DNA from: an uncultured Clostridia bacterium
GTDB lineage: Bacteria; Bacillota; Clostridia; Christensenellales; UBA1242
Direction: 5' to 3'
Assembly: GCA_944384405.1 (NCBI GenBank)
Contig: CALWTH010000041.1
Location: 65,394 to 129,393, forward strand
Length of the DNA: 64,000 bases
This document shows, piece by piece, positions 34,201 to 61,630 of this stretch. Made by a program: the position numbers and the translations under genes. Under the pieces are notes generated by a model. The model ran no database searches. It was not told the DNA's origin and saw only the letters and a list, made by a program, of their open reading frames with translations. The first letter of the stretch is position 1, and each line of letters starts with the position of its first letter.

Positions 34201-37200
34201 TTAAATACGTTTCCATTGCTTTCATTTCTGAAATTAAATGTTGTATTTCTTCCAACTTCTATGGTTACATTGCAGACAACTGAGTTTTCGTCAATTATTG
34301 AAAATAATCCAAAGTTGTCAATTGTTGTGTAATCGGAATAAATTCCGCTAAATACTATGTTGTGACCGTTTCCGTCAAATCTAGCAACACTTGCATCAAT
34401 TGGCGTGAAATCAGAAGCGATTGTGATATCGTTCATTAAAATATAGTAATTGCCATCACTCATTGCCAATAACTGCTCTTGTGTGTAGATTGGAAGTGGA
34501 CTGTCGAGTGATGTGTTTTGATTGACTGTGACATCAAACTTTTTAATATCTACATCACTTATGTCTTCAAGTTCATCTTCATTTAAGAGCATAACTTGAA
34601 CATAACCATTGAGATATTGAAGTCTTGCATAAACTCCAAGTGAGAATAAATTTTCTCCAACATATTTTACTGTCAAATTATAGCCATCAATATCCAAAAT
34701 ATTATTACTTAAACTTGTTTCGTCTGTGATTCTAACATATCCGTTTTCATCACTTAATTTATAATAGAACACACCATTTTGTTTTAAACTTGCTTTTAAA
34801 GCATTGACAGCAGTAATTGCATTGCCAGAATATTCGACATCAAGATTATCAATAAGCAAATCTCTAATATCAGCACTATTGCCGCGATTTAGATAAATCT
34901 CAGAATTTTTGAACACTTCGTTCATATCATCAAGATTTCCAAGCACATATTCAACAATTGTGCATGTGAACGAATTTCTAATTCCACTCGTTGTGACTCC
35001 GTCAACAGTTGTTGTTCCGTAGTATGTTATTGTGACGTCATATCCACCATATTGCTGACCTTGAGGATAACTTATATTATCTGAAATTTTTAGATAATAT
35101 GTACCATTGTCATTTATAATTTGTGCATATGGTGACGAACTTTCAACAACAACATCAGAAGTTTTGTAACCAACTGTGTTGATATTTAGTAAGTAATTAT
35201 ATCCTCTTGCAACATAGTAATGATCAGATGCACCTTTATCTGCCAAAGTTACTTCAATTGTTTTGTTTAAAGATATTGTCAAAACACGCTGTTGCTGTGA
35301 GTATACGATTTCTCCATCTGCATTATAAAAGTTCACATACAAAGTGATTGAATCACCTTCGGTGACATTTGTTGCCATTCTGTAAAGTACATTAAGTTCA
35401 CCACCAACAATTGATGACTTCATGACTTTTATGCCTGTACTTGTGAAAAAGGCATCTGACGAAATAACTGCTTCTCCTTGATTATTATTTCTTGGAACCA
35501 AAAGCCCAAAAAGTACAACGTTGCCACTGGATATGTTTTCTTGAGAATTTGTAACTTCAATGTAGGAGTAATCAGAATATGCTGGATTTATCACGACTTT
35601 CAATATATTTGGTTCACCGGCGGTAACAATGTTTGTTTCTGTCATTGAATAACTTGTGTTATAGACATAATACCCATCGCCTGTGTCAACCAAAATAACA
35701 TCTTCATTGTTTGTGAAACTATAATTTTTCACAATTACATTATTTATTGGTTGTTTAGCAAAAGTTGCATAAACATTTTTGCTGACTGCCCCATCAGCAC
35801 CTGTGAATGTGAACATATAGTCGCCAATTCTTATTGCGTTGTCTGTGTTCATTTCAAAAGTATAGTCTATATAATATCTTCCATTATTAAAATACACTTC
35901 TGATGCTTTCGCAATAAAGTAGTTTTCAAAGTCTGCATCACCAAATTTCAGAACTTCGCCATTTTCAAGATAGGTGACAAACAATTCAATTTCATCATTA
36001 ATGTCATCTGTTAAATAACTGACTTTAATTGAGAAAACATCACTTGGCACAAGTGAAATGTTTGTCTTGTCACTTTCAATATTATATATTCCCTGTGAAT
36101 ATGTGGTATAAATTGTCTTGCTTATAGTAGCGTCATCTCTTGCAATTTCAACAAAATTAAACTCTGTTTCATCATCTTGTGACTTTGCTAAATACATTTT
36201 TGTATTGTTCACATCAAGATAAATGTAAAATTGAATTGCTTTTGGTGTTGTTTGAGTTTCAGTTCCCACCCCTTGCAAAATAACTGTACCTGAACTTTGC
36301 ACCACATTGACGTCTTCGTTTGAAACTATTTCAAGTTTAGCAGTTTGACTTTCAACAAGATTAATTCGCATATTTCCAACGCTTGCAAAGGCATCAAATC
36401 TTGGATAAAGAGTTGTTGTATTTCTATTTGTCACACTAATTTGTGAATTTTGCAGAAGTTCGTCTGTATAGTCTGATGACAAATACAAGTTTACTCCACT
36501 GACGTAATTTGTCACAACACAAGTTATTTGCTGACTTATTCCGGCATTGAGCACTGAAGTGAGAGTCAAAATAACTGTACCAGTTTTGTGAAGCCTAAGT
36601 TTCCCTTCCGTTGTGATTGATACAACACTAGTTGCATTTGATGAAATTGTTATTTCAACATTTTGGGCAAATAAATCGGAAGGCAAACTCTGTGTATTTA
36701 AAGTATTTAAGTAACTTTGATTTACACTATCTTTTGCTTGATAATACATAACAACAATTTTATTTTTTGTTAAATTCAGATAATTGTCTTTATCTTGAGT
36801 ACCAGTAAACACCTTTTCAAATTGTTCAATTTCAACATTTGCACCAGCAACAAGTTCGCCGTAATATGTGTTTATGCCTTCTATATTACCATTTTGTCCG
36901 TACTGCACAAATGTCCTTGTTATATATGAAAGTGCAGTGTTTGAAGCATCAACATCAACGTTAACTGAGTTGAATATCTTTGCAATACTATTAGAAGCGT
37001 TTGCAACAATCAAAGTTGCATCAAGTCCTGTAAGTGTCCTATCATCTGTTGCTTGAACTTTATTGTTTGATATATCTGAACTTTCTGCATTTCCAACAAA
37101 ACCAATAAGTCCACCAACATAAGTATTTCCACGAACATAAACTCTAGTGGTGTTGCCTAAAATTTCTCCGCCGTTATCTAAAAGTCCAATAAGTCCGCCA

Positions 37201-40200
37201 ACATTTGCACAACTGGAAGCAGAAACTCTTCCTGTTGCCAAAATATTAACGACATTGCCAGCAGTGTTTTTACCCACAACTCCACCAACACCACTAGAAG
37301 TTGTGTTTGCACCAGTCGTTGTGTTTGCACCAGTCACAGATATATAAACTTGGCTTGAAACACCATAGTTATTGTATGTATTCATATTATCGGCTTTAAC
37401 AAACTGCAAATTACCACAGTTTTCACCAACAACACCACCTATATAACTTGTGCCACCAGAAAGTTGAATATCAAGCACACTATTTTTTTGCATGTATGTA
37501 AACATTGTGGAGTTTACAGATGAATTTTGTATATCAATTATATACTCACCATTGTTTTGACCTACACCACCACCAATATATGCCGTTATTGCTGACTGCA
37601 CTTGTACAGTACTTTGACTTAAATTGACATTGACATTTTCAATACTTCCATTATTTACACCAGCCAAAAGTCCTATGTATGAATTTGTGTTACTTTCAAC
37701 ATCTATTGCACCGCTAATTGTTAAATTTTTAACATATGCGCCACTTGCAATACTTGAAAATAGTCCATAGTAGTCGCCTGCATTTAATCCTGCCGTTACC
37801 GAATAAGCAGACTTAACTTTAAAATTAGTAATACCTGATACTGAGCCATCACTTGAAGTCTTGCCTGAAATTCCACCTGTAAGTTCACCCAAAGGTGCAA
37901 TTTCTTCACCACCGCCGTCAATTGTTCCATCTATGATATAATGTTTTGATAAATCAATGTTTTTAAATTGTTCCCAACTTCCAATATGAAGTGGACTAGA
38001 AATTGAGCCATCACCAACAGTAACAGGAATTTCAATAGAATATGAATAATCATTTCTGTCAGAACTATTAAATAATGAGTTTGGTACTATTTTTATAATA
38101 CCACTTCCACCCCCTGCACCTGTGTAATCAACGACAATTCTGTTTTCATCATATTGTAATTGTATAATTGAACCCACTCCATCATTTGGTTCAAACCAAG
38201 CAAAGAAACTTTTATTAGTTGCATTTTGTGGTAAAATATAAGGATAAATAATCTCTTGAGTGTGAGTTGAATCTAGATATATTTCATCTATATAGTTATA
38301 AAACCAAACTTCTTCAACTTGAACATATTGAACAATGTTTATTGTCACAGTTGACGATATCATTGTTCCATATTCATAAATACTTGCTGTAATGGTAAAT
38401 GTTGCTATTGGATTTCCAACTGCATCACAAACAAACATAAGTTCGCCATTATAATTATCATAGTAGTAGCCATAGACTATACTTCCGGCATCGGTAAGGG
38501 CATATCTTCCATAAGCACCATCATATGCCGATGAAACAGAAAAAGAAAATTCAAGATCAAGATTTTGCAATAACAAATCGTTAACATTTGTTTCAATTCC
38601 ATCTAGCATAAGCCTAAATTCAACCATTGCCATTGACCTATCAAAATAGCCAAGAGGAGTGTTTAGGTCATAAACATTGACATTTTTGGAGTATTTTTCT
38701 TCCAAATCACTTGAATTTTTGGCATCAAAACTAAAATTAGAAATTGGTTCAAAACATATGATTTCAAAATCAAACTGTGTACTTTCCAACATTTCTTCGT
38801 CAATAGTTAGCATGAAGTTTTCAATTCTGTTAATTCTCACAGTAACATGAATTGTCTGTCTTGTGTTGTCAACCGAAGTGAAAGAGATAACATTTTCATT
38901 TATTAAAACATTTGTGTTATCACACTGATATGAAATTTCAAACATAGATTGACTTGTTATGCCCATTGGTGATGTGCTTGCTAATATTTCAACATCGCCA
39001 ATTCCTCTCACTGCAACAAAGTCAAGTGTTTCATTTTCGCCAATTTGTCTGTACTGAACCTCGGCAATGTTATCGTCTTTAGTTGAAACATAGAACCAAA
39101 GATTGTCAACGTCAAGTTCATCTTTTACCACTATTGTTATGCGTGTAGAAATACCATTTTCAAGAACAAGTGTGTAATGTGCTTCTCCAACGCTATGTGT
39201 TGTTATATCAATTGACGCAACATCATCTGCAGTTAAAGGCGTTTGAATAATTGTGCATACAGAGGTTGAAACAACATCATCACTTGATGCTGTGATTTTT
39301 CCAACATAAGCACCTTGTTCTTGCACAACAAAGCCACTAAATGTCACACTTTCGCCATTTTTAACATATATAGTTGAATTTGCATAAATATCTTCAACTC
39401 TAAAGTCCGTTGCACTCTTTTGAACTGTGAAATTTATATCGTTATAAATAGTGTCTGTAGTCAATTCGGCATTGACTGTGACTCTGACTACAATTTTTTC
39501 GCCAAGATTTTCAGGCAAGATTTCACGTCCATATACTTGAAGTGGAATTGTTAAATCAGAAATAAGCACATCATTATCAATTTCTTGAATACCATAGATA
39601 ATACAAATATACTGCCTTATATCAGAGTAAGGCACATTTAAAAGTTCGCCACCTCGTTGAATATAAAACGACAAAGACAAGTAATCATAATCAGCGTTTT
39701 GTGGTCTTACAGTAAACAAAAATTGTTTTGCACTGCCGATATCGTCATTGTCAAACAAGTTTATGTCCTGTGCTTCTGTTTGTGCATTTACCAAAACACT
39801 TTCAGGTCTTGATATGATTTTGACTTTATACATAATATCAACATAATAAGCGTCATAGTCGCTATATTTTACTCTTATTACCAAAACATCATCAACAAGT
39901 GCAAAGTCAGTTGCCTGAATTGTCACTTGTTTTATATTTTGCATTGTTGGCGTTTGAGATGTCTGTGCCACTGTATGAGTACTATTTGCAAAAACTTCAT
40001 ATGTGTATGCTTCATCATATGCAAGCATTAACGTCTTTTGAAATTGTTCGTTGTCATTTTCTATAAGTTCAATATAACTATCACTATCTTGATCTATGGA
40101 AGGTATGATTGTATCGTTGTAACTTAAAGAAATATTTTGCGTGTCAATTTCATCAACCACTTTTACTGAAAATGTGTATGTGATATTTTCATCAGCCAAA

Positions 40201-40763
40201 CTGACCGCCGTCACAACAATTTCATCTGTAGTGACTTGATTTGTTGTGAGTAATCCATCTTCAATAATCTCAGTTCCAATCTGAAACCTAACATCACGTT
40301 CTATAGTTGATAGTGGATAAAAATCAAGCATATCATTTGAAAGTTGCAATGATTGTCCACGAATAACAAACAAGTTTGTGTCTTCTTTTAAAGTGATACT
40401 TGTTAGCGGTTCATAAACTGTCACTGGAATATTTATATAATTGGAATTTTCAAGCAAAGTGATAGTTAATGTTGCCTTACCTGGTGTGTGACCTTTAACA
40501 GTTATTTGGTATTGTCCCCCACCAAGATGTGTTAAATTGGAAACAGTGGCAATTTGTGTGTCAAATGAAAAATTGAAATGAATATTACTAGAAAAATAAT
40601 TGTCAACTGTTATTTCATAATTTTGACTTGTGTTTTGTTCTACTTCAATACTTTGGCTTGAAAAATGGAGAGAAAGGTCATCATAGTTTTCTCCACACGC
40701 TGAAAGTAAAAACGTAAACATAGAAATTAAAATTAAACTAAATGTTATAAAATATTTTTTCAT
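31287..40763 (-). CDS. Giant lipoprotein 2 (about 3,158 aa): Ig-like stretches alternating with three GLUG-type beta-helix modules
   Basis: Uninterrupted ORF. GGAGAG is 3 nt before ATG 40763. Lipobox LLSAC|GEN. Many (V/I)GG(L/V/I)(I/V)G and AGF(V/A)..N.G.I repeats. Confidence 0.85.
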   Translation of the reverse strand: MKKYFITFSLILISMFTFLLSACGENYDDLSLHFSSQSIEVEQNTSQNYEITVDNYFSSNIHFNFSFDTQIATVSNLTHLGGGQYQITVKGHTPGKATLTITLLENSNYINIPVTVYEPLTSITLKEDTNLFVIRGQSLQLSNDMLDFYPLSTIERDVRFQIGTEIIEDGLLTTNQVTTDEIVVTAVSLADENITYTFSVKVVDEIDTQNISLSYNDTIIPSIDQDSDSYIELIENDNEQFQKTLMLAYDEAYTYEVFANSTHTVAQTSQTPTMQNIKQVTIQATDFALVDDVLVIRVKYSDYDAYYVDIMYKVKIISRPESVLVNAQTEAQDINLFDNDDIGSAKQFLFTVRPQNADYDYLSLSFYIQRGGELLNVPYSDIRQYICIIYGIQEIDNDVLISDLTIPLQVYGREILPENLGEKIVVRVTVNAELTTDTIYNDINFTVQKSATDFRVEDIYANSTIYVKNGESVTFSGFVVQEQGAYVGKITASSDDVVSTSVCTIIQTPLTADDVASIDITTHSVGEAHYTLVLENGISTRITIVVKDELDVDNLWFYVSTKDDNIAEVQYRQIGENETLDFVAVRGIGDVEILASTSPMGITSQSMFEISYQCDNTNVLINENVISFTSVDNTRQTIHVTVRINRIENFMLTIDEEMLESTQFDFEIICFEPISNFSFDAKNSSDLEEKYSKNVNVYDLNTPLGYFDRSMAMVEFRLMLDGIETNVNDLLLQNLDLEFSFSVSSAYDGAYGRYALTDAGSIVYGYYYDNYNGELMFVCDAVGNPIATFTITASIYEYGTMISSTVTINIVQYVQVEEVWFYNYIDEIYLDSTHTQEIIYPYILPQNATNKSFFAWFEPNDGVGSIIQLQYDENRIVVDYTGAGGGSGIIKIVPNSLFNSSDRNDYSYSIEIPVTVGDGSISSPLHIGSWEQFKNIDLSKHYIIDGTIDGGGEEIAPLGELTGGISGKTSSDGSVSGITNFKVKSAYSVTAGLNAGDYYGLFSSIASGAYVKNLTISGAIDVESNTNSYIGLLAGVNNGSIENVNVNLSQSTVQVQSAITAYIGGGVGQNNGEYIIDIQNSSVNSTMFTYMQKNSVLDIQLSGGTSYIGGVVGENCGNLQFVKADNMNTYNNYGVSSQVYISVTGANTTTGANTTSSGVGGVVGKNTAGNVVNILATGRVSASSCANVGGLIGLLDNGGEILGNTTRVYVRGNTYVGGLIGFVGNAESSDISNNKVQATDDRTLTGLDATLIVANASNSIAKIFNSVNVDVDASNTALSYITRTFVQYGQNGNIEGINTYYGELVAGANVEIEQFEKVFTGTQDKDNYLNLTKNKIVVMYYQAKDSVNQSYLNTLNTQSLPSDLFAQNVEITISSNATSVVSITTEGKLRLHKTGTVILTLTSVLNAGISQQITCVVTNYVSGVNLYLSSDYTDELLQNSQISVTNRNTTTLYPRFDAFASVGNMRINLVESQTAKLEIVSNEDVNVVQSSGTVILQGVGTETQTTPKAIQFYIYLDVNNTKMYLAKSQDDETEFNFVEIARDDATISKTIYTTYSQGIYNIESDKTNISLVPSDVFSIKVSYLTDDINDEIELFVTYLENGEVLKFGDADFENYFIAKASEVYFNNGRYYIDYTFEMNTDNAIRIGDYMFTFTGADGAVSKNVYATFAKQPINNVIVKNYSFTNNEDVILVDTGDGYYVYNTSYSMTETNIVTAGEPNILKVVINPAYSDYSYIEVTNSQENISSGNVVLFGLLVPRNNNQGEAVISSDAFFTSTGIKVMKSSIVGGELNVLYRMATNVTEGDSITLYVNFYNADGEIVYSQQQRVLTISLNKTIEVTLADKGASDHYYVARGYNYLLNINTVGYKTSDVVVESSSPYAQIINDNGTYYLKISDNISYPQGQQYGGYDVTITYYGTTTVDGVTTSGIRNSFTCTIVEYVLGNLDDMNEVFKNSEIYLNRGNSADIRDLLIDNLDVEYSGNAITAVNALKASLKQNGVFYYKLSDENGYVRITDETSLSNNILDIDGYNLTVKYVGENLFSLGVYARLQYLNGYVQVMLLNEDELEDISDVDIKKFDVTVNQNTSLDSPLPIYTQEQLLAMSDGNYYILMNDITIASDFTPIDASVARFDGNGHNIVFSGIYSDYTTIDNFGLFSIIDENSVVCNVTIEVGRNTTFNFRNESNGNVFNFGLLCAQNNGTITNCQVVCRDDSSSLIVTNSAPMSLTSTSNISPFVAVNSGYITNSRVNIRVESYGANLAGFVAINNGHVASSYVKRSYIRNSSTNVNNATAGFVIQNTGTIFASFIEGEYLSGLSYVYASDTNYIIRANSIAGAFAYINDGTISNCYANIPLTSSSINSGFVCTNNGEIKSSYTTSKLGDRDIGNHPFYIYSQGSITDSYYLSDDNFNVDINTSNEKYGNDKLRKTLVIEFAIGYAVTRIGANYIVGEKLFDSFAINSNDDIASGVWFYAKDNNSFLTNQTISTGMEISSSDYRNYLQYSRLVTVQGLQKDGQYMQFRENRPQLVTANIIAYSSKYIVEEEYVEETGETIYIYAETPGSYSEGSMYNPIIVASAVLFEEDFISNSIRNINTKYYRLIKDIDYIEENLAVSSLYSYVLGGYFEGNGLSISNFSINSNASVTSGGYFSQIGYGSDYATIQNIEFSPKYINLPNAVSVGTIAGTVNRMYAYNVIVDGYNSSTTSNVVLGKNIVGGVFGRIVNSFDIQNIYSSISTNAYQTNSSDNWTEQSVQNQILYEEGGSNYNTVSYSGSIVGYLGGVGRLKNAYITNAVASIGMVSGFMFGGIGLNAEVQDVEFQYQNLANYFIRASAYGGIIVGDLKGTLRNVNVYALDTNTDEEGELEQQNYYIFNLTPKIPIAVGGLCGIVRGNKEQTQNIIDCNVDIDIQFNSAIVVGKVGGLAGKALQNVVIQNSSYTGDLLTGQSALGGIVGEIEFNGTFGNVIMQDISVGATEQSCVIKLIKPAQEEISNASYVGGVIGLITNTQSLSNTQNGKFIVNANTVNAEITSDISIYGDNIGNAESDIAISYSVYVSRFIGGYVSTSGSNETFADFYAKLTQDIKENVSFTVGDLVVNMNLYLKNLRNGNSVQKLPYGYNIYLSSFIYDFTGFDDFYISVYPFIINGVTQSSSNAYNLLIRNGVIQ
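31700..33080 (-). other. Beta-helix module 3 of giant protein 2 (approximate bounds)
   Basis: Opens with SMYNPIIVASAVLFEEDF...YYRLIKDIDY...FEGNGLSISNF, then VGGVFGRI, AVGGLCGIV, KVGGLAGKA, ALGGIVGEI, YVGGVIGLI. Confidence 0.5.
33350..34510 (-). other. Beta-helix module 2 of giant protein 2 (approximate bounds)
   Basis: Opens with SPLPIYTQEQLLAM...YYILMNDITI...FDGNGHNIVF...FGLFS, then AGFVAINNGHV, AGFVIQNTGTI, SGFVCTNNGEI. Confidence 0.5.
36810..38005 (-). other. Beta-helix module 1 of giant protein 2 (approximate bounds)
   Basis: Opens with SSPLHIGSWEQFKNIDL..HYIIDG, then YIGGGVGQNNG, YIGGVVGENCGN, VGGVVGKNTAGN, NVGGLIGLLDNGG, YVGGLIGFVGN. Confidence 0.5.
40695..40763 (-). other. Lipoprotein signal peptide of giant protein 2
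   Basis: MKKYFITFSLILISMFTFLLSAC. Cys codon at 40697-40695. Confidence 0.75.
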
Positions 40764-40813
40764 TTTCTCTCCATTTTTTGCCATAGTTTGCTTTTCCCCC
40801 TTAAACAGTGCTG

Positions 40814-43800
40814 CTATTCTTCTACTATTATTTGATCATTCATCTCGCCGAACACAACATCTAATAGCAAAATTGCATACTCCTCATCGGAAATTTGAGT
40901 AATAGGCAACTTAATAACTGTAGATGCAAAAGCACTTGACTCGTTAATATTCCAGGCATATCCCTCATCTGAATATCTATTATAACCAATGGTTATTCCA
41001 AGAAAGGCTTCAACTTTGAAGAATTTCATATATTCTTTACTTGCATCAAACGTCCAATTATATGTTATGGTGGATTTTTGTTCGGTACCATCTTCGCCAA
41101 CTGTTGTTTTTTCTACTGTTTCTGTAAATGTAGCAATGTTGTCTTCAGTGTTTATGGTAACTGCACTTCTTGTGATTGTGTCGCTTACACTAACACCATC
41201 ATCAGTCGTATACTCAAATGTTTCAGTTTTGTTCCCTAAGCCACTATACCAATTTTCATCTGTGTTATGTCTAGCATATACATATTCATTTACTGTAATG
41301 TCACCAGAATCAGTTGTAACCGTTGCATTGTTTTTCAAGACGTAAATACCTTTTGGAACCGAAACACCTAAACTTGTATAAGTACCTTCTTGTGATAATA
41401 CCTCACCAACAGTACCTGATATTTTATATCCTCTTAGTGTATAGTAGTGGTTTTGTGGTATTTTAATTGCATAACTTCCATTGAAAGGAATAAGTTTAAT
41501 TCCAGGATTTTCATCAGTTAAACTTAGTGCAAAATCCAATTCCAAAACTATGTCTTCACCATCATAAGTCCATTCAATTTTTGTATGTGACTTTTTCTCT
41601 CCATTTACATGAGTGTCGTTATACAAATACCATTTGTAATTTAGTGTATTTGATGAATAATCACTATTGGCTATATTAGTACCAGATGAATTCAACCAGA
41701 ACCCATTACTAATGTCGTATACAGGATTGTCCACTAGTAGTGTCATTATTCCAGCACTATTTTTCTTTAGTGACAAAATCATTGTATCTAAATCTAACTT
41801 ATATCCAAGGTCATTATAAACATCTTCACCACTCTTTAGCAACTTATAGTCTCCATTTTGTTTAATGAAAATTAAAATGACATTACTATTGTTATCAAAG
41901 TATAGATGTGCTTCAGTTTTGTCAGAATTGTCTGATGTTGTCAACACTTTGTAAGTTAATGAATGGAGTGTGGTTCTTTCAATAATTGCAACCGGCATTT
42001 CTTCATTTTTTGAAGTATGAACTTCAATATATCCTTTTGTTGCTAAATTGACATCATCTGTCCACCAATTTTTAGACAAATATTCAATATTATTTATTAC
42101 TTGTGTTGGTGACTGTTTGTTATTGTTTGCAACTGTGTGGAAAGTTCCATCACTATCCGCTATTTCAATAGAATTAGTTATTGCGTTAAATTCCACTAAG
42201 ATAGTCACTTTACTTGCGTCAGAATACGATTCGGTTATTGTGTACGTGCCTTCTGTTAAAGTTAAAGTGAATTTATGTTGTGTTTTTACAAAATTGCCAT
42301 CAACAAATTCAAATATATAACTTTCTTTATCAGTATAAACTGTCAAAATGTTATTCTCATATTTAAAGGTATAATTTGTTCCCTTAAGTTGAACATAACC
42401 ATTTTGTCCATTGTTTTCAAAAGTGATTGTTGTTGCTCCATTGTAAATTTCATATGAAACACCAAAATCATTTTCATCGGTGGTATCAACACTTACAATG
42501 TTGCTACTTATACCATATCCATCATATTTGTCACCACTTGCATCTTCTTTGATTATGTAGTATGTTCCATCTTCGCTTAGAACAAAATCGGTTTCATCAT
42601 ACAATGTAAAGCCAGTTAAATGGCCACTACCATCATAATCAAACACATAAATTATTGTTTGTGTTTGATCATTTGATCCGCTAGATTGTTTAGATGTTTT
42701 TTCTAACACAACAGCATTTAATGCGATTTGTTGTGTGCCTGACATTTTATAAACATTAGCCCTGACATGCTTGTAAGTTACTGTTTGATTATCTTGCTTT
42801 ATTTCAATGACTTCATCATCATTGACAATAAAGGCTTCACCATTATGATTTTCTGAAGAAACATTATAATTAAAATCAACTGAAATATTGTTAAATCCTT
42901 CAGCAATGATAGAATTAAGTGAAATGGAATAAGTAGTAGTGATTATATCACTTCTTCTATAGATATTAGAAATAGTGCCTTGTGATGTTGCATCAATATA
43001 ATACGTTGTAGTTGAATTGATAACATCAAAAGTTAAATTAACAATATCCGACAAATTAATTCCGCTATCATTGATATTTTGAATCTCGTTTAATGACAAC
43101 AGATTGTTCTGATATGTAATGATATTTATTGGTCCCTCATTTTGTCCCTCATTTTGTCCCTTATTTTGTCTCTCAGGGAAGAACATATCATTTCTTGACA
43201 CTCCAACTTCAAAATTTATTTTGCTACTTGATATATAAGAAATATTGCCAAGGTAATATACATTGTCTTTTGAATCAACAAGGAATATATATTCTTGGTA
43301 TTGTGTGCCTGACATGTTTTGTTCAGTTGCAAATCCATTATTAAATGAAATGAAAATTGTCTTATATCTTCTGTCTGAATGTGTTAAACCATCAATGTTA
43401 ATTACTCCATTTGTTGTAACAAACATGTTCAATGAGCCTTCATACAAAACTGTTGGGGTTGATTTATCAATTTCTAATTTATTTCCGTCATTAAGGTTGA
43501 TATTAAATATGGTGCTACTTGTTGACTTAATATCGTCAAGATCCAAAATGTTTTCATTATCATCTTTGATATCCCAGCTTATTGAATTTGTAATTGATGA
43601 AATTTGTGAATTGTAGATAACATGATCTTTTTCTATGTAAATAGGCTTTACAACATTCTTATTTTCAAGAGTGCTGTATACAAGATACCAACCCGGCCCC
43701 ATATTTTTAATTAATTCAGCATACTCAGTATCATTTTTATCTATATGTTTAATGAATTTGAACTTCATTTGTTTGGATATTTCTTCTTTTAAATTTCCGT

Positions 43801-46800
43801 CTTCACCTATTATATCGTCATCTATTCCCAAATCCAAGTCGCCGAGTGCACTTTCATCAATTTTGCCATTTTCGTCTACAATACCATCTAATATTCCTTG
43901 ATCAATATCTGGACTTGTAGTTATTGTAGAGTCTACAATCTCTGTGTTGTTCAAATTAATATACTGTCCATTTTGCTCTGTGACTATTGTATAGAAAGGA
44001 ACAGATTGTGTTGTAATACTTCCCGCACTAAATTTATTATATTGGTCTATTGATAATATTGTAATGTTATTAATAGCAAAATTATCATTTCTACTTGTCA
44101 TTGGAATTGGTGCAGAATTATCTAAATAAGTTTTATATATAGAACTTGTAGTAAATAGCTGGTGAGCGGTGACAAATTCTAGTGATGTATCTGTAACAAT
44201 GTCACTTATCGTGCTGTCATCATATCTATAACCATTTATAGATAGCCTATAAACTGTCTCTTGAATGGAGTGAACATCTTGTGTCCCCTTATATGAATCT
44301 TCCAACACCGATCCATTAATGATAATAATATAAATATTTTTCTGATAATTATATATAACTCTATTTTCACCATTAACATACGAATCCATTTTTCTTGATA
44401 CTTGTGTTTCATACTCATAAGCATCAACTTTCATATATGTAATTATTGAATTACTTTCAATATTTTGATTACCTGTTTTAGAATCAGCTTGACTACCTGT
44501 TTGAGAATCACCACCCTCTGTTGTTACACTTGTTTGTTTTCCAATTACCCCTATAATCTGACGTGAATTTATAAGTTTTGGTTTTTGAGTTATATCTTCA
44601 ACATCAGAAGAATCAAAATAATACGAAGGGTCAGCCATAGCAAGTACTGATGTATTTACAGATACTTTACCATCATAGTCATAACCAGAGCCTCTATTAC
44701 CAATGTAATTGTCGGCATATGCTTTAGTCGAGAATTTGGTACCATTAATTCCAGATGTTATGATTAATCTTTGATTTTCTGTACCAACTTTTATATTGGT
44801 ATCTTTTGATATTGGCAATGAAGTATTTTGTTTAGAATATCCAATTACCCCACCAGCGTAAGTTGTAACTTCACTTATTCCTGCTGTGACTTCAATTTTT
44901 GATAATCCAATTGATATATCATTTAATTTAATGACTTGCCCCTCATTATTGTTGTAATATCCAATCAAACCACCAACATATACACTATTACCAGATGTAT
45001 TTTCAACATCGATGTTTCCTGTTATATCAAGTTGCGAACTACCACCATCAGGTGTTGAAATGTTAGAATCTAACATATACCCGATAGCACCACCAAATAT
45101 ATTATTTGATGATGTTGAAACAATGCCTTCTCCGTACAAATCAACTGACACAATGTCGCTTATATTGACATTGGTATTTTCAGTTCTACCAATAAGTCCA
45201 CCGACACCTGTCAATTCTGATTGATCTAAACTTCCGCTTGCAGTCAAATCAGTACTTAATTCAATATCAGTATTTTGAATTGTTAAAGTACTATTTTTAG
45301 CACTTCCAACTAAACCACCTGCATTTAAAGTGTATGTACTACTTTGACTACCTTGTATGTAATCTTTGACAATCAGCGATACTTCTGTGTTTGAAATATT
45401 CACATTGCCACCATCAACAAGCGTACCAATAAGTCCACCCATTGACTTATCTGTATTTGCAATTGCACTTTGCTGTGTATGATAAGTTAAATCCAAATTA
45501 GATATGTCAACATTTTTACCATAATTCACAAGTCCAATAGCAGCTCCAGTGTTGTTTATTAAAAACCCATTTATTTCTGCTTTTTTATAACTTGAAGATG
45601 TTATTTTTCCACTAAATGGACTTTCCTCACTTTCACCAAATCCATCAACCTGCGTACCAAAACTTGTGCCTGCACTATTTGAGAAGTTTAATTCTATGGT
45701 AATTCCCCCTGAAATTTGAATAGCATCTACTAAACTCTTGAATTTTTCACTATTGTTTAACCGCAAATCATTAAATTCATTTGAATTTACGACAGCCTCA
45801 TATTTTTGATATGACAAAATTTTATTTACTAAATTAACTGTAGCACGATAATCCTCAACGCTGTTCACTTTGATTGTCGCAGTCGCACTTTGATCTGTTC
45901 CAGATGCAGTTGTATTTTGATCAAAAAGATCAATACTTGGAGTGCTTGCAACTTCTGGTGAAGTGCTTGGAATATAATCTCCATCAACTGTTATCCAATC
46001 ATCTCCAAACTTACCATATGTATTAGAAACACCTTCGGCCTTACTTAATTTAGTTATTACACTACCTGAAACATCATAAATATATTGATAATCTTCATCA
46101 AACATTGCAACATCGTTAAATGAATACAATGTTTTGCTACTATTTTCAATCAAATTTTCATGAACTTGATATAGATCACTACGCCATGCAACATTTTGTG
46201 TACCACCTTTTGTTTCCCCATCTTTTGCATTACCAATTGAGTGGGAATATACATCGTAAACGTATAAATTTGTTACGTTATTATCATTCAAATAGTTATT
46301 GTAAATAAATTCATTATTATATTTTTGCAATCCCATCCATTCATCAACGCCATCATTCATAAAGGCATCTAACGCTGATGTTGCTGTATCATTAGGAATT
46401 GGCACACCAAGAGGTAATTCCACTGTGGCACTTACTGGATCACCACCAAAGGCAAATATGTTAATTTTAGTCCAATCCGCTCTTTTATATGAAAGTGAAT
46501 AGTAACTGCTTTTTTCATTTGTAGGTAATACGTTATATCCACTACCATCAATGTAATATTCATTAATATTGACTTCTGTTGTAAGTATATATACTGATGC
46601 TACAACTGTAATACCTGCAATAGTTGCCATAAGCCCTATGGCCACTTTCCATCCTAGGATAGGAATCTTGGATACAAATGCTGCCGCAATCATCAAAGAC
46701 ATTGCAGTCTCTGATAGTCCAACAACCCCAAGTATTTTTGAAGCCATGCTCAATGTGTCTACATCATAGTATGCAGTAGCCTTTCTTGCAGATAATCCTC

Positions 46801-49800
46801 CATAAATATTCGAAGTGCTTGTCGAAACATATGAAACCCTATCATAACTATTGGCAATTCCTGCAACGTGTGCTTCTTGAGAAACTTTTGCATATCCTAA
46901 TTTCTTGTAAACGTCAAAACCGCCATTTCCATTATCTCTGAAAATTCTTGGATGAGTTGCCCCTTGTTCGTCTTCATGAATATAATTTGTCGATTCACCT
47001 TCAAATGTATAATTATACTTTGCATTTCCTATTATATTTTCAGCACGTACATAACTGTTTGAAATATTACCGCCAAAGCCACTTATGCCTCCAACATAAC
47101 TTTTAGAAATGTTATAAGGATTTCCTGCAAAAACTGATGATGTGCCAAATAAACCAGAATTGATTATTTTTCCGGTACCATTATTGCCAATTACAGTTGA
47201 ATCTGCTTGAGATATCAAGTAACCTGCACCACCAACAATTCCACCTGTATAAAGATTTATGCTTGTATTTGAATAAGTAGTGTTTTGTGATTCATCTGCG
47301 TATAAGATATCAGATAATACATACATATTATTTGATAGATAAGAGTTTTCAACAGTTCCATTTTCAAGCAGTCCAACAACTCCACCAGCAATGATTGTCG
47401 ATGTCGCAGTTGGTACGCTGCTGAATGAAATCATAAGCTCTTTATCAATTCGACAATCTTCTACAGTCGCTTCACCTGTGACATGACCAACTATTCCACC
47501 ATAAATAAATGATGAAACTGTAATTCCTAAATTTAATTCAATAATATTGTTATTATCTTTATTGTCTGTTGTTATTAATTGACATTCAGATAGCTTAGAT
47601 CCGCTTCCAAGTTCACCAACAACATTACCATAATAATATGCATTATACTCAAGCTTTTTATTTCTATATATATCTGGGTTTATAGAAGTAATTTTTATAT
47701 TGTTAATATTGGTAGATTCAGTTTTATTTGCAAGCAATCCAACAATGTAATCATTAGCATTTATATCTATAAATAAATTTTCTATAACCAAGTTTTTTAA
47801 TTCACTACTTGTTGTTGTATCAAATAGTCCCCCACCTCTCGTAGTTAAGTTGGATATTTTGTGTGTATTTCCTTGAAAATCATTCAACCCTTCATTTGTT
47901 ATGTCCATCACAGGTGTAAGGGTATCATAACCATCAAGGACAATATTCTTGATATTTTTTATTGATGTCCATTTCAAAAGCGATGATGTTGAAACATAAC
48001 TAGCGTTTATATCATTAACTAAATTGTAATAAGTTTTTTCTGTTGGAGAATTTTCCAACTGTTTAAGTTTACCAAGGTTTGGAATTTGATATGGACTACT
48101 TTGCTTACCATTACCTGTATCATGGCGCATATATTCAATTGACTGGTATGCTCCACCACTAAACGAACCATAGCCATAGGCATATTGACTATCATAATTA
48201 AATGTTCCGATTTGATGATCTTGATCTGGCAATGTGCCAATATAGTTTGTGCTTAAATCTTCTGTATTAACACCGCTGCCGCTACCTTGAACTAAAAATT
48301 CAGCAGCAATTTGATCATAATAACTCTTTTTAACATAAGTTGCATCGTTATTTGAATCAAAGGCAAAGATGTGGTACTTTAATCTCATGTTGTTACCACT
48401 TATATCATTTTCATAAACAACTCTCATATTAGTGTAACTGTCGTAAACCTTACCTGCTGCTAAAAGGTAAACATAAAGATTTGAACCTTTCTCCGAAACA
48501 GCATTTGGTGCGTCTATATTACCACTACTATAACTATTTACCACCATTCCATCATTAGTTCCAACAAGTCCAGCAACTGCGACATCTTGTGCCTCACCAG
48601 TTTCATTTTCTTCTTGTTTTCCAACATATGATGGATTATTTCCGCCATCTTCATATTCCGTTGAAATATTGAGGCTTACAAAACTATCTTTTATAAGTCC
48701 GCTATTTTCACCAACAAGTCCAGCAACAGCACCTTTCCCGGCATCAATTGTTCCAACAAGTTTTTGTTGATTGCCTGATAGTGCATTAGTTGAATCTGAA
48801 TCTAAATTGTTGAAAATACTATTACTTCTGCTTACATTGCAAGAATATATGATACCCTCATTTTGGTATGTAAGGCCAGCGACTGGCAATGTATTATAAC
48901 TTGCAACACCAGAACTATCTTGTCCAATAACAAAACTTGCAACAACAACTATTCCTGATACACTGCTATTTTTATCTATTGATTGTATAGGAGATAATGA
49001 CGACTTTGAATCCTTATTTATATTTGTATTTGAGAATGTCAAAAGTGCACCGTCACCAATCACCACCGTATTGGTTAAAGCAGTAAGCTGATGTACTCCA
49101 CCATCAGTGTTATCTGAAAGTTTAACATACCAAGTTTGCTCATCATCAATAACACTTGCTCTTTCTTGAGAATTTGAAGGATTTAACTTTGTACCAGCAG
49201 TTTCGCCGTTATAAAGAATTTGACTATATAACTCATCTTCTTCATCAAGGTCAATTATTACCTCAATATTGTCATAAAGTGTTGTATTCCCTGCTATTCC
49301 AGAAAGTATATTTTCATATGAAACATTATTACCTAAACTATCAGTACACAAAGTTGCCACATGTGCATAATAGTTTTCATTATCTATGGTGACACTTTCT
49401 GTGCCTGAGCCAACTAGCGCATTCACTTCATATGTGCCTGATATATCTCTATCATATCTATTAAATAATGTTGCTATTGATATATTCTTTTCAATAGTTA
49501 AATTATCATTAACAACCCCAACAAGTCCGCCATATGTTAAACTTGCAAGGTTAATTGAAACTGACTTTGTTATTTCTGTCTTGTTTTGTGAAGTGCTCTT
49601 TTTATAAGATGGATAGAAGTTGCCTGTACTTATATTATTTCTTAAAGCAACACTTGAACTACTTACAGTTGCAACAATACCAGAAAAGATCAAAGATACA
49701 TTTGAATAATCTTGAGTTTCATCATTTATGACTATGTGCTTAATGTCACCGAATGAATAACAATTTTCTATTGAACTATTATTTGTTGCCCTTCCAGCAA

Positions 49801-52800
49801 TTCCACCAACGTAAATAACATAATTATTTTCACCGCTAGTTTGTTCCAAAATTATTTCGCCATAACTTTCAGCTCCATATAATGTTCCGTTAGTCAAACT
49901 TCCAACAATTCCGCCAATATAATCGTAGTGTCCATTGCCTTGCACAGTTATATCAACAAGCGACTGAATGATATGCTTGTTATTATTTACCAAGTTCAAG
50001 TTTGTCAAACTACCAAATACAGAGCCAATGTTGTTTCCATTGTCTTCGCTTATACCCCTGGCGTTGATTACATTTATTCCAGCACCAACATCCGGTACAT
50101 TATTGTTTGATACATCTATGCTTGTATTTTCGTTAAAAACAATATTTTGTGAATATCCAACAATTCCACCTATACTTGAATTTGCTGTCGTTACGTTCAT
50201 TAAAACATCGACATTGATTTCATCTAAGGTTATATTTTGACTATAACCTATAAGTCCTCCGACATAAGAATCAATAAACATCACATCGTCTTCTGCTGAC
50301 AATTCAATATCTAGATTATTTGAAGACACAATAGCATTGTCAACATAACCAAATAGCATTCCCAATCTAAGTCCATAGATTTTAGAATCAGTGGAATCAG
50401 AATTAAACTTAATACCTGATTCAAAAACACCAAATTCATCTTGGTCATTTGTTGAACCATCAATAGAGATTTGACTTTCATTACCAGTTGATGATGCTAA
50501 TCTTCCTGCAACCAAACCAACATAAAGCGAATTATTTTGATTGTTTTGTGCATCAGTGAAAATAATGTGGCTTTGTTTTATCGCAATTGAAGAAATTGAA
50601 CCTGTTGTTAAATATGATTCACCAAAAACTAAGCCAACATACAAAGATGTGCTTAACAAATTACCCGAATTGTTATCTTGTGAAGTTGACGCCTTAAATG
50701 AAATATCACTTTCTTGTATTTTGATATTCCTAAAAGATGTACTTCCACGTGCCATACCAGTTACAAGTCCAAACTGTGAAGTCGATGTGTTTATATTTGC
50801 TTTTACACCCCTAAATGTCAAATCAGCAAATGTTGTATTTGTTGAATTAGCGACAAGAATTGCATTTTGGCTAGTATTTGCAGCGCTTTCAAAAGTAGTA
50901 TTTTCAAAAGCTATTGTGAAATTACTAAATGTTGCACCAAGTGTGTTTGTGAAAAGCGCTCTTGTCTGTTTTGCTGTATTTTTAAACAAGAAACCGTACT
51001 CATATCTATTATCAAGTCCTCTCAATTCGCCTGAGAATGCGTTGATAGGAGTTATTGCACGTGTAATTACAACATAACGTACATCTTCTGGATAACCTTG
51101 ATGACGTTTATCGGTCATATCTGGATCAATGACAAATATATCATTTTCACCTGCAGTACGCATATCTTCTATATCTTCCTCAGTTCTTATATAGTGTATA
51201 CCACCTAAATAACCAAATACAATATGTGGATAAAGTTCATTGTCATCTCTGCTCCAAGAAGATTTATCCCATCCATTGCCAGTGAAATAGACATCATAAT
51301 TTTCACCATCATCACCAGCGCCTGTTATTGTGTCAACAAATGAAGGCAATGATGTGATTATACCACCTCCTGAAACATCATTTATATATTGTTGTGCAGA
51401 AGGAGTAAGTGTTTCACTTGCATCTGTAAATTTAATATTTTCTCTGTTAAAAGATATAGAAGATGTGTAAGTAGTATCTATGTTGTTGATATCAACAAGA
51501 CTATCGTCTACTCTAATAATAGCATTTGCTTGACCTTCACCACCTAAAAGCCAATCACCCCAATAATTTATTGCATTTACTTTGTCAAGACGCATACTTG
51601 CGCGTGCAAGTCCAACAATTCCTGAAGCATATTGCGATTGAACATCACCAGATGCATAAACTTCAATAATATTTGTTTCAACATAGGTGTTAGGATTTGA
51701 TGACATTTCGCTTAAACCAATTATGCCACCAGCATAAACACCGCCATTTTGTGAGTTTTGTGTTCTTGTGTTAATTACATTTAATTTAGAGTATGATTTT
51801 TCAATTTTTCCACTAACTTGCAAACCAACAAGACCACCAATAGCAATAGGGGTGTAACCTTCTGTCATAAATAACTGAGTATTACCTCTATCAATATCAT
51901 CATTATTTGGATAATTTGCATAGTAATTTTTGATGTTTGCTTCAATACTTTCATCGCCATCGTCATTTGGATCGTCATCACCAATTTGCCATGATTTTTC
52001 ATGCTCACTTCTCACTTGACGAATATAACCAGCATTATATCCAACAATACCACCTGCGAATCCATTATATGAGTATATTCCTTGTCGAGAATAGTTTTGT
52101 GAATCAACATAACTAAGTTCATATAAGGCATCTTGAAGAACTGTTAATGGTCCAATATATCCGGTAACTCCGCCTACCGTACCACCTGAAATAATATTTG
52201 TTCCAAGTGTTTTTAGCATAATAGCATTGCCATCAGAAGATATTTGTTGTTCAGCATATACCGTTGTATTTATAGAAGCTGAAGTATAAGCATCAAGTAC
52301 ACCAACAACACCACCTGCATAAGAAATGTAAGCGTTTAAAATATCGCTTGTTCTATTGTATGTATTATAAGAGATATAACTATTTGAAATATAGTTTGTT
52401 GGATTCATGCTTGCCGTTACACTGATATCCTGTACACTTAAATTGAATATATATGAATCACCAATTACGCGTCCAATAAGTCCACCAACAACGTTTTTCC
52501 CTCTGACTGTAACATTACTTGCATTATCATAAGCCGATACAAGAGAAACATTAACAACTGTTGAATTTTCGACTGTTCCACTAAGTGCACCAACATACTC
52601 AACCCCAGATGCTTCAACCCCAAACACGTCACCACCTGCGTTAGTTGAACCTAAGACTAAGTTTACGTTTTGGACAATAGCGCCATCGGTCACACTTGCA
52701 AACATACCAAAATTAACGGCTTCGCCGTCTGGGTCAGAAAGAGCTAGTCCAGAGATTGTTAAGCCATTTCCATCAAACTTACCTATTGAACCTTGATTGC

Positions 52801-55800
52801 CCACATCTTTGTATTTTCCTGTTAGTGTCATGCTTGATGATGCAAGGGTGTAAGTGTTGTTACTATCTGTAATAAGTTCACTTAAATCTATGTCATTTAT
52901 TAATCTATATGAACCAAAAATCTCGCGAGAAGATGTATTCACATATCTTGACGCACTTGAATTGTCTGTGCCACTAAACACTTTTGCGAATTCTTCTGCT
53001 GATCTTATAAGAATAGGGTTGTTTTTTGAACCATATCTATACTCATCAACATAGGCAAATATTGGTCGAGTGCTTTGATCTGCATTGCTTGCATATCTTA
53101 ATGAAACAGATATTTGATTTGCACTGACAAGTTCAGGTCCTACACTTGTCATAAACCATATTCCATCATTTTCATCTTCTGTCGTTTTGTTTGCAAAACT
53201 AAAACCATAGAGATAATCTTCATCAGTGATACTTGAAATATATTCAGCACCTTCACCATATGCCGATTCAATAAAGACTGATGAGTCAGAAAGAGAAACT
53301 TCATCATAATAATATGAATTGGTAATTTCTCCCAAATTCTGATAGTTGCCAAAGTCATCAACACCGGCAAAATTCATCTGGGTAGTTGTTGTGCCCACAA
53401 TTCTTGAAAGAGACAAACTTTTTTCAACAACTCCTGATTCTGTATTTCTATAAACAAAGCCAGCGCTGTTTCTTCCTGGATTATTGTTTTGATTTGTTAG
53501 CGTTAAGTTAGAATAACTGTTGTTTATTTCGCCTGAGTTTTCATAAACAAATCCAGCACTTATACCAGATGTTTCAATACCATAAAGTGTAGCATGAATA
53601 TCTGTGCTTTCTCTTTTAACTCCCTTTGCGTAACTTGCACTGATAAGTCCAGCGTTTTCAACAACAAAACCTGCAGTAATAGTCGTATAATCTATGTTAC
53701 TATTATTAATTATTCTTATATTTGAAGCATAAGAACTAACGATGTGCCCTGAACTTGTGTTACTGTAAACAAAGCCAGCAATTTCACCAAACGATGAAAT
53801 TACAAATGGTGAAAGGAAATGTGTTTGAGGAGAAATTATACCTGTGTTTATAAGATCTCCATTTGAGTCGTATTCAACTACACTCTCTCCGCCAACACGG
53901 CTATTGGTTATGATTCCATTATTTGTGACAACAAAACCAGCAGTAATTGCTGAAACTCCAATAGTTGAATCAGTTGTTAAACTAAGCCCTGTAACAGCAG
54001 GTGCTATTTCGTTTGTAAGATCTCTAAAACTTACAACTTCGCAGTTTGTTATTATACCATTGTTTGTTATTGCTATAGGAGCAATATTAACTGTGTTTGT
54101 GTAAGCCGAAGTAATAGAAATTGTGTTTAGATGGAACACATTAACTCTTAAATTTTTAAGCGTAGTATTTGAAGATACAGTGTTAAAGAGCGCTAAATCT
54201 ATTTGAGATTGTGTGTTGTCATAGTTAAAGCTTACAATGACAATTTGATGACCGTTTCCATCAAGACTACGTAGTTTTGAAGTATCTTGAGCAGGAGTGT
54301 AATCGTAAAGGTGGATATCTTTTGTCAAAATATAGTCTTCTTCTGACTCGCCATTTAGTGCGTTTAAAAATTCTTCTGCGTTTGAAATTTGTGATGGTGA
54401 ATCATCGCTTGTTGGATCAGAAATTACTATTGAGAAGAAGTAATTATATGTGCGAATTGAAAGGTCAGGCATTTGAACACGCATTTGAAGTAACATTTGT
54501 TGTGTTCCGTTTTGTGTACCAATAAATCTTATATCGTTATCAGTTTGTTCAAATCTTACAATAGTATCACTTGGTGAAGTAATTTCACCTGAGTTATTTA
54601 ATACAGGAGTATATACTTTACCATTTACATAATATAAGTTATATAAAAGTGAATTATTTTTATTTCCATCAATATTTACAATATAATCGCCACTTACATA
54701 ATAATTATTTTGAGTAAACTCATTGTATGCTTGCTCACTTGCAGAAATCGAGCCATCTTCATTTTTAACATACCTTCCACCAAAGTTAAATTTTAATGTA
54801 TGGTAGAAATATTGGTCACCAGTTGCAATATCTGTGCCCTCTTCATTTGCAATATGAGTGTTAGAGAAATCAAGTTCAAAATCAATGACATAAACTACTA
54901 AATATGAGTAAACTGTTTCTTTTACTCCGTTTATTGTACGTGAAGTATCAACTCTTACTCTAAAGTTACTTGCATTTTCTCCAATTTCAATATTTATGGA
55001 AGCTTTGTAATAACTTGTTGCATATTCTTCACGATCTGAATCGCTGACACTTGATGGAAGACTTACATCACCGGCAACCATAGTATCGGCACTGTTATCA
55101 GAGCCCGGATCAGTACTTGAAGGCAACACAAAGGCAGTGATTGAATCTATGCTTTGAGTCTGATCCCAAATTATGTCAGCAGTTATTGTTTCACCACGTA
55201 TTGCATATATTGAACTTTCTCCATCAACTGTTATCCCAGCCTTTTCTTGAGGAACAATAATGAGAGAGTAAGGCAATGTGTACATAACCTCATCGCCGTT
55301 CATAACATTTACATATATAGTATAAACAGTGTCAACTTGAACACCTTCTGGAACTTTAACCCTTACATAATACCTTGCGACTTCACTTTCACTGTCTACT
55401 TTATAAACTTGTATACCATTGGTGATATATGCAAATGTATTAGCAAGATTTACACTATAGCCCTGACCTTTTTTTCTCATATTCAAAAAGCTTAGAGCTA
55501 TACCATTTTGTGGTTCACTTGTGACAGTGATGTGAGTGTATTTTGCATATGAAGGATAAACCATTATATCCAAAAGTCCTGTCGTGTTTGGTGAAGAAAC
55601 ATTGTTTGGATAGTAGTTGTAAAGTGAAACACCTGTTTCGCTAGACGCACCACTTCTTTGAGAATAATGATTAATGTCAACGCGAAGCACTTCTTGATCA
55701 AGAACTGTAAGTTCAAGAGTTGCTCTCACATCATCATACTCACTTGGACTATCTGTGCTGAAAACAACTGTGTATTTGCTGTCAAACTGTGTAAGCTTGG

Positions 55801-60700: not shown

Positions 60701-60777
60701 AGCAACTCCTCATCTATTCATCTATTGTTTTCAAATTTTGGTTTTATTATTACATAATAAACCAACTTTATATGCTT

Positions 60778-60806
60778 AGTATAAGAATATTTGCCCTTTA
60801 TGTCAA
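60778..60806 (-). promoter_or_regulatory. Near-consensus sigma-A promoter of the giant-gene operon
   Basis: Minus strand TTGACA, 17-nt spacer (TAAAGGGCAAATATTCT), TATACT. About 70-nt leader. Confidence 0.65.
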
Positions 60807-60905
60807 ATTATTTGAAAAAAATTTTTTGTATTTTTAATTATATGACTAACAAAAAATAAATAAAAAAAATAAAAAAATATTAAATAAAAATAAAATTAAA
60901 TTTAT

Positions 60906-60940
60906 AAAAAAAATCCATATTTTAACAAAGTTAAAATATG
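60906..60940 (-). terminator. AT-rich hairpin plus T-run downstream of spoIIID (weak terminator)
   Basis: Perfect 11-bp inverted repeat CATATTTTAAC-aaa-GTTAAAATATG (60916-60940). On the minus strand it is followed by ga and T8. Confidence 0.45.
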
Positions 60941-60982
60941 AAAATAAAAATTAAATAAAAATAAAATGTCAAAAAAATAATA

Positions 60983-61231
60983 TTATTTATTTTTTAACAA
61001 ATATTTATTTTTTGTTGAAATTCCACCACGAATATGTTTTTCATTAAAGTTTTTATCAAGAATTTTCTGTACTTGATAAAAAAGATTAGGATTTATTTTT
61101 TTTAATTTTTTATGTATGTCTAAGTGCACAGTTGATTTTGAATACCCAAAAAAATTTGCCGTCTGACGTATTGTTGCACCATTTGAAAGTATATAATGTG
61201 CGAAATCTAATACCCTGTCTTTGTTTTTCAC
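60983..61231 (-). CDS. spoIIID: Sporulation transcriptional regulator SpoIIID
   Basis: 82 aa. HTH region ATIRQTANFFGYSKSTVHLDI, then INP.L...V..IL, then HIRGG..TK.KY. GTG start with AGGAG RBS. Confidence 0.9.
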   Translation of the reverse strand: MKNKDRVLDFAHYILSNGATIRQTANFFGYSKSTVHLDIHKKLKKINPNLFYQVQKILDKNFNEKHIRGGISTKNKYLLKNK

Positions 61232-61248
61232 TTGCCACTCCTATTGCA

Positions 61249-61278: not shown

Positions 61279-61327
61279 ACAATTTGTCCGATAATGTAAA
61301 CAACGGAATAAAAATCTATTGAAGTGC

Positions 61328-61356: not shown

Positions 61357-61385
61357 GTTTATGGCAAAATTTTATGGAGGATATT

Positions 61386-61619: not shown

Positions 61620-61630
61620 AAAAATTACAT

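Follow-up and report, generated by a model that had tools for sequence, protein, structure and literature searches.

A mid-chain hydrophobic hairpin in a giant predicted lipoprotein of an uncultured gut Clostridia bacterium as a possible second membrane anchor

A low-GC DNA stretch of 64,000 nucleotides (about 31–35% GC), referred to here in its full length as the window, comes from an uncultured Clostridia bacterium of the gut, a relative of Christensenella and Caccovivens, and carries on its minus strand three giant genes, for proteins of 3,769, 3,165 and 6,628 amino acids (aa). The largest product is a predicted bacterial lipoprotein, and two thirds along its chain lies a pair of hydrophobic segments (residues 4656–4707, window 46580–46735) that forms a helix-turn-helix insertion, placed in a loop that links the final GLUG-type turns with a conserved domain further along. 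Judged from the sequence, there is about an even chance that this hairpin spans the cytoplasmic membrane of the producing cell itself, running out-in-out. It appears to be an accessory and evolutionarily unstable anchor: in the orthologues the site persists and stays helical and apolar, while length and hydrophobicity differ widely.

The features of this gene on which the argument draws are the following.

40814–60700, minus strand: giant lipoprotein gene, 6,628 aa, a single open reading frame (ORF), with collinear orthologues in 47 loci of metagenome-assembled genomes (MAGs).
60623–60700, minus strand: signal peptide with the lipobox FSAC; in the orthologues this position reads LSAC, LYAC or LSGC.
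46736–47599, minus strand: third GLUG-type repeat module, residues 4368–4655; Pfam PF07581, E = 1.8e-8, 34.7 bits, in three stretches.
46757–46771, minus strand: conserved aromatic/acidic flank YYDVD, residues 4644–4648, mirrored past the hairpin by V(N/D)xxYY.
46673–46735, minus strand: first helix (H1), ILGVVGLSETAMSLMIAAAFV, residues 4656–4676, 21 aa, marginally hydrophobic, with Glu4664 inside.
46646–46672, minus strand: loop SKIPILGWK, residues 4677–4685, 9 aa, net charge +2, predicted to face the cytoplasm.
46580–46645, minus strand: second helix (H2), VAIGLMATIAGITVVASVYILT, residues 4686–4707, 22 aa, strongly hydrophobic, within 23 consecutive residues that include no D, E, K, R or H.
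45821–46579, minus strand: conserved post-hairpin domain, residues 4708–4960, with the motifs EVNINEYYIDGSGY, LDFxxGxP, NLYVYDVYSHSIG and NVAW.
44801–45700, minus strand: fourth GLUG-like module, residues 5001–5300; PF07581 at E = 0.0017 and 19.0 bits, just under the cut-off.
40817–46579, minus strand: C-terminal part, residues 4708–6628, 1,921 aa, of extracellular-type composition and without Cys.

The protein begins MKKIRTLLVSILMIILGGAGVVFSAC, and Cys26 is its predicted lipidation site. The signal peptide, laid out as MKKIR-TLLVSILMIILGGAGVV-FSA-C26, reads by sequence as a lipoprotein signal, with an unusual Phe at position −3 of the lipobox, and the protein is a predicted substrate of Lgt and LspA. 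The initial annotation had described the hairpin as the only long hydrophobic stretch after this signal peptide, and both Kyte-Doolittle averages over 19 residues (1.75 for H1, 2.17 for H2) and predicted insertion energies bear this out at residues 4656–4707. The energies were obtained with a position-weighted predictor of the Hessa 2007 type, which was re-implemented and checked on a few controls only. These gave sensible values: −2.9 for glycophorin A, −2.6 for Lep H1, and −2.1 and −1.8 kcal/mol for the pair of helices in the cardiolipin synthase encoded in the window. On this scale H2 is insertion-competent at about −2.4 kcal/mol and H1 is marginal at about +1.1, and the remainder of the mature protein never falls below +1.6 kcal/mol. 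A simple summed hydrophobicity scale places H1 at a non-membrane-like +3.1, which the position weighting softens to +1.1, a value within the range of helper-dependent membrane helices.

Both flanks of the hairpin are predicted to be extracytoplasmic on the strength of their composition and GLUG repeats. The C-terminal part has 0% Cys and 5% Lys and is rich in Ser, Thr, Asn, Gly and Tyr, like other giants; the cytoplasmic proteins of the window contain 2.2% Cys and 10.8% Lys. The third GLUG-type module ends in a conserved AGIANSY..GGLSAR..YYDVD block directly before the hairpin, and a further PF07581 match above the gathering cut-off of 20.5 bits lies at residues 3629–3653 (23.4 bits). GLUG repeats had been proposed on both sides. 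Those before the hairpin are well above the cut-off, while those after it reach only a sub-threshold 19.0 bits, accompanied by six regularly spaced GG[ILV]xG motifs in residues 5088–5283, which form one of two clusters of this motif (the other at 4401–4537). The wider proposal that both flanks are of the same extracellular type holds in view of the GLUG repeats and the exported-giant composition of the C-terminal part. A single membrane crossing would leave an extracellular-type part in the cytoplasm. Since both flanks are of extracellular type, the number of crossings should be zero or two.

Orthologues were found by a genome scan seeded with an alignment of a better-conserved region of the protein (residues 2064–2997), which had matched fragments in MAGs of Clostridia and Christensenellales. 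Direct searches had been unproductive: with residues 4540–4960, a word-index protein search found no match and an exhaustive phmmer search of 1.84 billion representatives yielded nothing but a spurious repeat protein (P0001). No match came from single-protein patterns of the hairpin region, scanned against genomes and metagenomes, or from the C-terminal part alone as query. Both large protein libraries lack the proteins of the window (exact look-ups of two of them, holB and cls, found no record) as well as the MAG orthologues L005–L009, which share 25–45% identity with this region (tblastn E from 1e-10 to 1e-117). Relatives do exist in GTDB genomes, and negatives from these two libraries are unreliable for this lineage. 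The seeded scan returned 47 loci in as many species-level MAGs of uncultured Clostridia, Christensenella-like bacteria and Candidatus Caccovivens, mostly from gut samples. At nearly all of the loci the product is a lipoprotein, with lengths from 5,300 to beyond 6,700 aa, and most are single ORFs.

The hairpin-bearing domain occurs in five of these loci (L006, L007, L009, L015 and L040); L008 is truncated by the end of its contig. Together with the C-terminal part, this domain is detectable only in the clade of the window. The C-terminal part is homologous only in these five (31–49% identity). Conserved motifs surround the site (AGIANSY, GGLxAR and YYDVD before it; V(N/D)xxYY, GSGY, NLYVYDVYSHSIG and NVAW after it), and at the same alignment position each of the five has a hydrophobic helical pair. 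The hairpin itself is the least conserved stretch of its region, with 8–25% identity and 21% gap cells across the orthologues, against 33–55% identity and an ungapped alignment over the 60 residues just before it, and the length between the flanking motifs varies markedly. The predicted energies of H1 and H2 (kcal/mol, same re-implemented predictor) are as follows.

Window: H1 +1.1, H2 −2.4.
L040: H1 +0.6, H2 −0.9.
L015: H1 +0.8, H2 −0.6.
L006: H1 +0.25, H2 +1.0.
L007: H1 +2.3, H2 −0.6.
L009: H1 +3.9, H2 +1.5.

H2 is thus at or below zero in four of the six (window, L007, L015, L040), marginal in L006 and not competent in L009. Along the whole chain, the N-terminal 3,000 or so residues are 61–89% identical to those of L006, and identity drops to 26–65% beyond residue 3000 and to 26–43% past about residue 5400, with a local minimum at the hairpin (compared with L006, L007 and L009); the distal, C-terminal half of the giant evolves much faster than its N-terminal half. 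Four metagenome contigs carry the homologous giant in pieces, as two or three ORFs that follow one another in different frames: L001 (67–18460), L002 (1061–18193), L003 (3759–12424) and L004 (2551–12204). The break points differ, falling around window residues 1440–1700 and 2225–2900, and in the two contigs that were scanned, L001 and L002, the downstream pieces have no hydrophobic N-terminal segment and so no signal peptide of their own. These breaks could be frameshift errors, pseudogenes or phase variation.

Mid-chain hairpins, most of them with loops rich in Lys and Arg, also occur in two other clades of the giant-lipoprotein family, in the C-terminal third of the proteins.

L050: residues 6062–6119 (locus 20660–20840), energies −3.7/0.0.
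L051: residues 6264–6326, a weaker pair than in its relative L050, with an 18-residue loop, KAAGQLVAKQIAKYIAKA, containing five Lys.
L013: residues 4900–4950 (locus about 18110–18260), energies +1.9/−0.5, with a glycine-zipper-like run of Gly, Ala and Val, IGAGIGFGVGAVGVG...GWAAVGVAAVGALIGW.
L012: residues 4941–4995, energies +2.7/−0.5.

A profile-profile comparison of the hairpin domain of the window's clade with the L012/L013 region was not significant, and a common origin of the hairpins of different clades is not demonstrable from their sequences. The hairpin is a recurrent, optional element of the family. Over ten hairpins of the three clades, Lys or Arg occupies 20 of the 115 loop residues (17%), compared with a background of 6.5% (binomial P about 5e-5, for sequences that are not independent), and the loops are depleted in Asp and Glu while the flanks are acidic. 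In the window protein the loop carries two Lys and a charge of +2 and the C-terminal flank −3, in agreement with the positive-inside rule. Tyr-Tyr plus Asp motifs (YYDVD; V(N/D)xxYY) bracket the hairpin on both sides, as expected of residues placed at one membrane interface.

Structure prediction adds a model that is compatible with a hairpin and does not discriminate between readings. An AlphaFold 2 (AF2) model of residues 4626–4740 suggests two helices, 4647–4676 (30 residues) and 4680–4712 (33 residues), joined by a three-residue turn; confidence over the helices is moderate, with block means of 57–80 in the predicted local distance difference test (pLDDT).

Several observations weigh against a membrane-spanning hairpin. 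H1, with Glu4664 inside it, would not insert alone; H2 of L006 has just 16 uncharged residues; and the orthologous sequences indicate that the site does not conserve a two-pass membrane hairpin. Many complete members of the family have no hairpin at all. The AF2 prediction for residues 4334–5000 (667 residues, without an alignment) was uninformative, with a pLDDT of 29. Furthermore, a value of −2.38 is reached in 18 of 300 composition shuffles (6%) of the mature protein, in which Ile, Val and Leu are abundant, and one such segment alone is not extreme under this null. The relevant background is a different one: among the giants of the family (270,500 residues), segments with an energy of zero or less outside signal peptides occur almost only in such hairpins, and it is because real exported giants are depleted of these segments that the hairpin stands out.

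Zero crossings would likewise leave both flanks outside, and the main rival reading, possible if rather unlikely, is that the hairpin is exported and does not span the membrane. It might pack on a flanking domain or on another subunit, or lie on the outer leaflet as an interfacial or re-entrant element, and its high hydrophobicity in this protein would then reflect drift in a tolerant insertion. The orthologues lend weight to this possibility, for they are often too polar or too short for two spans (+3.9/+1.5 in L009; an H2 core of 16 aa in L006), with uncharged H1 cores of just 10–13 residues in L007, L009, L015 and L040, and they have a second variable amphipathic stretch about 50–100 residues downstream that hints at a small helical subdomain. 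Strongly apolar segments, however, partition into the bilayer during Sec transport, which is the basis of stop-transfer behaviour, and a segment at −2.4 kcal/mol would be expected to do so. Buried cores are usually conserved above their surroundings and intolerant of indels of 10–30 residues, yet the hairpin is the worst-conserved part; its poor conservation and many indels argue that it is not the buried core of a soluble domain and fit a constraint mainly by hydrophobicity. Loops rich in Lys and Arg and poor in Asp and Glu in three clades would also have no obvious reason in an exported hairpin. Should the hairpin nevertheless not span the membrane, it would serve as a caution that one strongly apolar segment can mislead topology prediction in proteins of this length.

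Very improbable is a use of the hairpin against other cells, in which it would stay shielded until contact and then enter the membrane of the target, as in colicin pore domains, the T domain of diphtheria toxin or the delivery domain of TcdB. In these toxins, an amphipathic helical bundle or a beta scaffold shields the hairpin. The giant shares with them two apolar helices joined by a short turn in a large secreted protein, and giant, fast-evolving surface proteins are plausible as devices of contact or attack. The far faster divergence of the C-terminal half fits such a role, as does the glycine-zipper-like run of L013, which we take to resemble channel-forming segments. The giant nevertheless differs from those toxins in having no shielding bundle, its flanks being GLUG-type and rich in Asn and Tyr, and no similarity in sequence was found: a profile of the domain from six orthologues gave no hit at E ≤ 1 against PDB sequences, these toxins included, and Pfam finds no toxin or immunity-like domains in the C-terminal part. 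Passage through the producer's own Sec channel without insertion would still be a problem.

The site could also be a relic of a gene fusion, or an artefact of assembly or sequencing, with H1 as the C-terminal anchor of an upstream gene and H2 as the N-terminal signal-anchor of a downstream one; the evidence leaves this highly unlikely. In its favour, the 3,769-aa giant of the same window has an uncleaved N-terminal signal-anchor, and the restriction of the hairpin domain and the C-terminal part to one clade would fit a joined gene. The initial annotation had suggested a search for a cryptic ribosome-binding site and start around here, and a candidate exists: V4686, with which H2 begins, is encoded by an in-frame GTG (window 46643–46659, minus strand) with AGGA 6 nt upstream; only 3 of the 219 in-frame start-like codons, this one included, have a Shine-Dalgarno-like motif. 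Neither the GTG start nor the motif is conserved in the orthologues, however, and near the hairpin there is no terminator and no excess of promoter-like sites. The five independently assembled orthologues, each one uninterrupted ORF of at least 6,315 aa, run across the site, which rules out an artefact; none is split into two ORFs there, which is the check that the initial annotation had proposed. The hairpin is not at a junction: a conserved block encloses it, and homologous sequence adjoins it on either side. The metagenome relatives with split genes (L001–L004) break elsewhere, around residues 1440–1700 and 2225–2900. The ancient fusion of two genes that had been offered as an alternative therefore finds no support in the single-ORF orthologues or the conserved block. 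The candidate internal start at GTG4686 was rejected as a chance occurrence, given the lack of conservation of its AGGA motif and of any promoter or terminator signal. Neither the DNA repeats near the hairpin nor the small ORFs of the opposite strand there are remarkable.

If the hairpin does span the producer's membrane, the lipoprotein signal would start Sec export and about 4,630 residues would be threaded outward before H1 and H2 left the lateral gate of SecYEG together, perhaps with the help of YidC. The Lys-bearing loop of nine residues would stay at the cytoplasmic face, and H2 would act as a reverse signal-anchor, after which SecA-driven export of the last 1,921 residues would resume. 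The product would be a long extracellular loop tied at both ends, by the lipid at Cys26 and by the hairpin, followed by some 1,900 residues as a free arm. The organism's largest surface protein would then be held at two points, with a change in its reach and shape from the cell, and it would offer a rare case of Sec stopping and restarting export after about 4,600 residues.

A broader and quite doubtful extension is that membrane hairpins arose repeatedly in mid-chain, in at least three clades, within this family of gut Clostridia lipoproteins that exceed 5,000 aa. A fibre tethered by one lipid would in each case become a doubly tethered loop with a free arm, the second helix would serve as an internal export signal, and cleavage there in the manner of a polyprotein would be conceivable. 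Such repeated origins would amount to a novel route to the construction and organisation of a very large surface structure in bacteria and would provide a test case for the re-initiation of Sec export once thousands of residues have been exported. The family of giants, found in 47 species-level MAGs, is entirely uncharacterised, and any architectural rule helps to annotate these genomes.

The other two giant genes of the window share the minus strand with the gene described above.

31287–40784, minus strand: second giant lipoprotein gene, 3,165 aa, 30 nt downstream of the 6,628-aa gene.
9484–20793, minus strand: third giant gene, 3,769 aa (g3769), with an uncleaved N-terminal hydrophobic signal-anchor, MKFTTFLKVFAIALASFVGAIGIGVGIMAIAGYF, and without a lipobox.

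Pfam gives no match for the 3,769-aa giant, and no similarity between it and the window's two other giants could be detected. Between the giant genes, on the opposite strand, lies an ORF of 810 aa (21142–23574, plus strand), likewise without a Pfam match, that has an internal pair of strongly hydrophobic helices (residues 456–496) and a C-terminal tail rich in Gln, Asn and Thr. The housekeeping genes of the window comprise holB, a PSP1-domain gene, two methyltransferase genes including rsmI, and genes for cardiolipin synthase, an M23 peptidase and an iron-containing alcohol dehydrogenase (Fe-ADH), along with two tRNAs. Upstream of the 6,628-aa gene, the order Fe-ADH, small ORF and M23 peptidase (window 60701–62266) is partly common to the metagenome relative L003 (1518–3561), in which additional genes for an acyl carrier protein, SpoIIID and a TilS-like protein lie between the M23 peptidase and the giant. 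The presence of SpoIIID in L003 points to a lineage of spore-forming ancestry.

Among known systems, the stem-anchor of flavivirus prM/E presents a similar succession of ectodomain, two-helix hairpin and next ectodomain, with helix 2 as an internal signal sequence. It differs in being viral and eukaryotic and in that signal peptidase cleaves after helix 2, whereas the giant has no convincing signal peptidase I site past H2. In the giant proteins of Omnitrophota, predicted membrane helices alternate with large extracellular regions, an assignment about which the authors admit uncertainty (bioRxiv 10.1101/2023.11.21.568195). Those proteins have numerous helices, cytoplasmic SecA-like domains and no lipobox, in contrast to the one hairpin in an otherwise extracellular-type lipoprotein seen here. 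The giants of Apilactobacillus have no membrane helices (PMC12863079).

The initial annotation knew of no described precedent for this topology in a lipoprotein; CyoA, QoxA and the multi-pass YidC are such precedents (PMC9360617, PMC5020093). YidC is a lipoprotein in S. aureus, so that a lipid-modified N-terminus and further membrane helices coexist in Bacillota, and QoxA is among the listed lipoproteins of the same species (PMC5020093). The YidC proteins of Gram-positive bacteria (SpoIIIJ-type) are multi-pass insertases with short external parts and are unrelated to the giant in sequence. In subunit II of cytochrome oxidases (CyoA, QoxA/CtaC), a lipidated Cys lies outside, helix 1 runs out-in, a short cytoplasmic loop follows, and helix 2 runs in-out to a large extracytoplasmic C-terminal domain. 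CyoA is this subunit in E. coli cytochrome bo3, and QoxA/CtaC are its counterparts in Bacillota; their succession of lipid, hairpin and external domain is the layout proposed for the giant. The resemblance is in topology only, as no part of the 6,628-aa protein has a Pfam match to COX2, and the giant is a topological analogue of CyoA and QoxA, not a member of their family. CyoA and QoxA serve respiration, whereas the giant is a surface structure. In E. coli, the N-terminal part of CyoA is inserted by YidC and its C-terminal domain requires SecYEG and SecA (PMC9360617). This division of labour, a YidC-dependent hairpin part and a SecYEG/SecA-dependent external domain, is established for CyoA, and the mechanism proposed for the giant follows it. 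The giant departs from these systems in where its hairpin lies: CyoA and QoxA have theirs a few residues past the lipidated Cys, whereas in the giant, a lipoprotein that is otherwise purely extracellular in type, about 4,630 residues are exported first.

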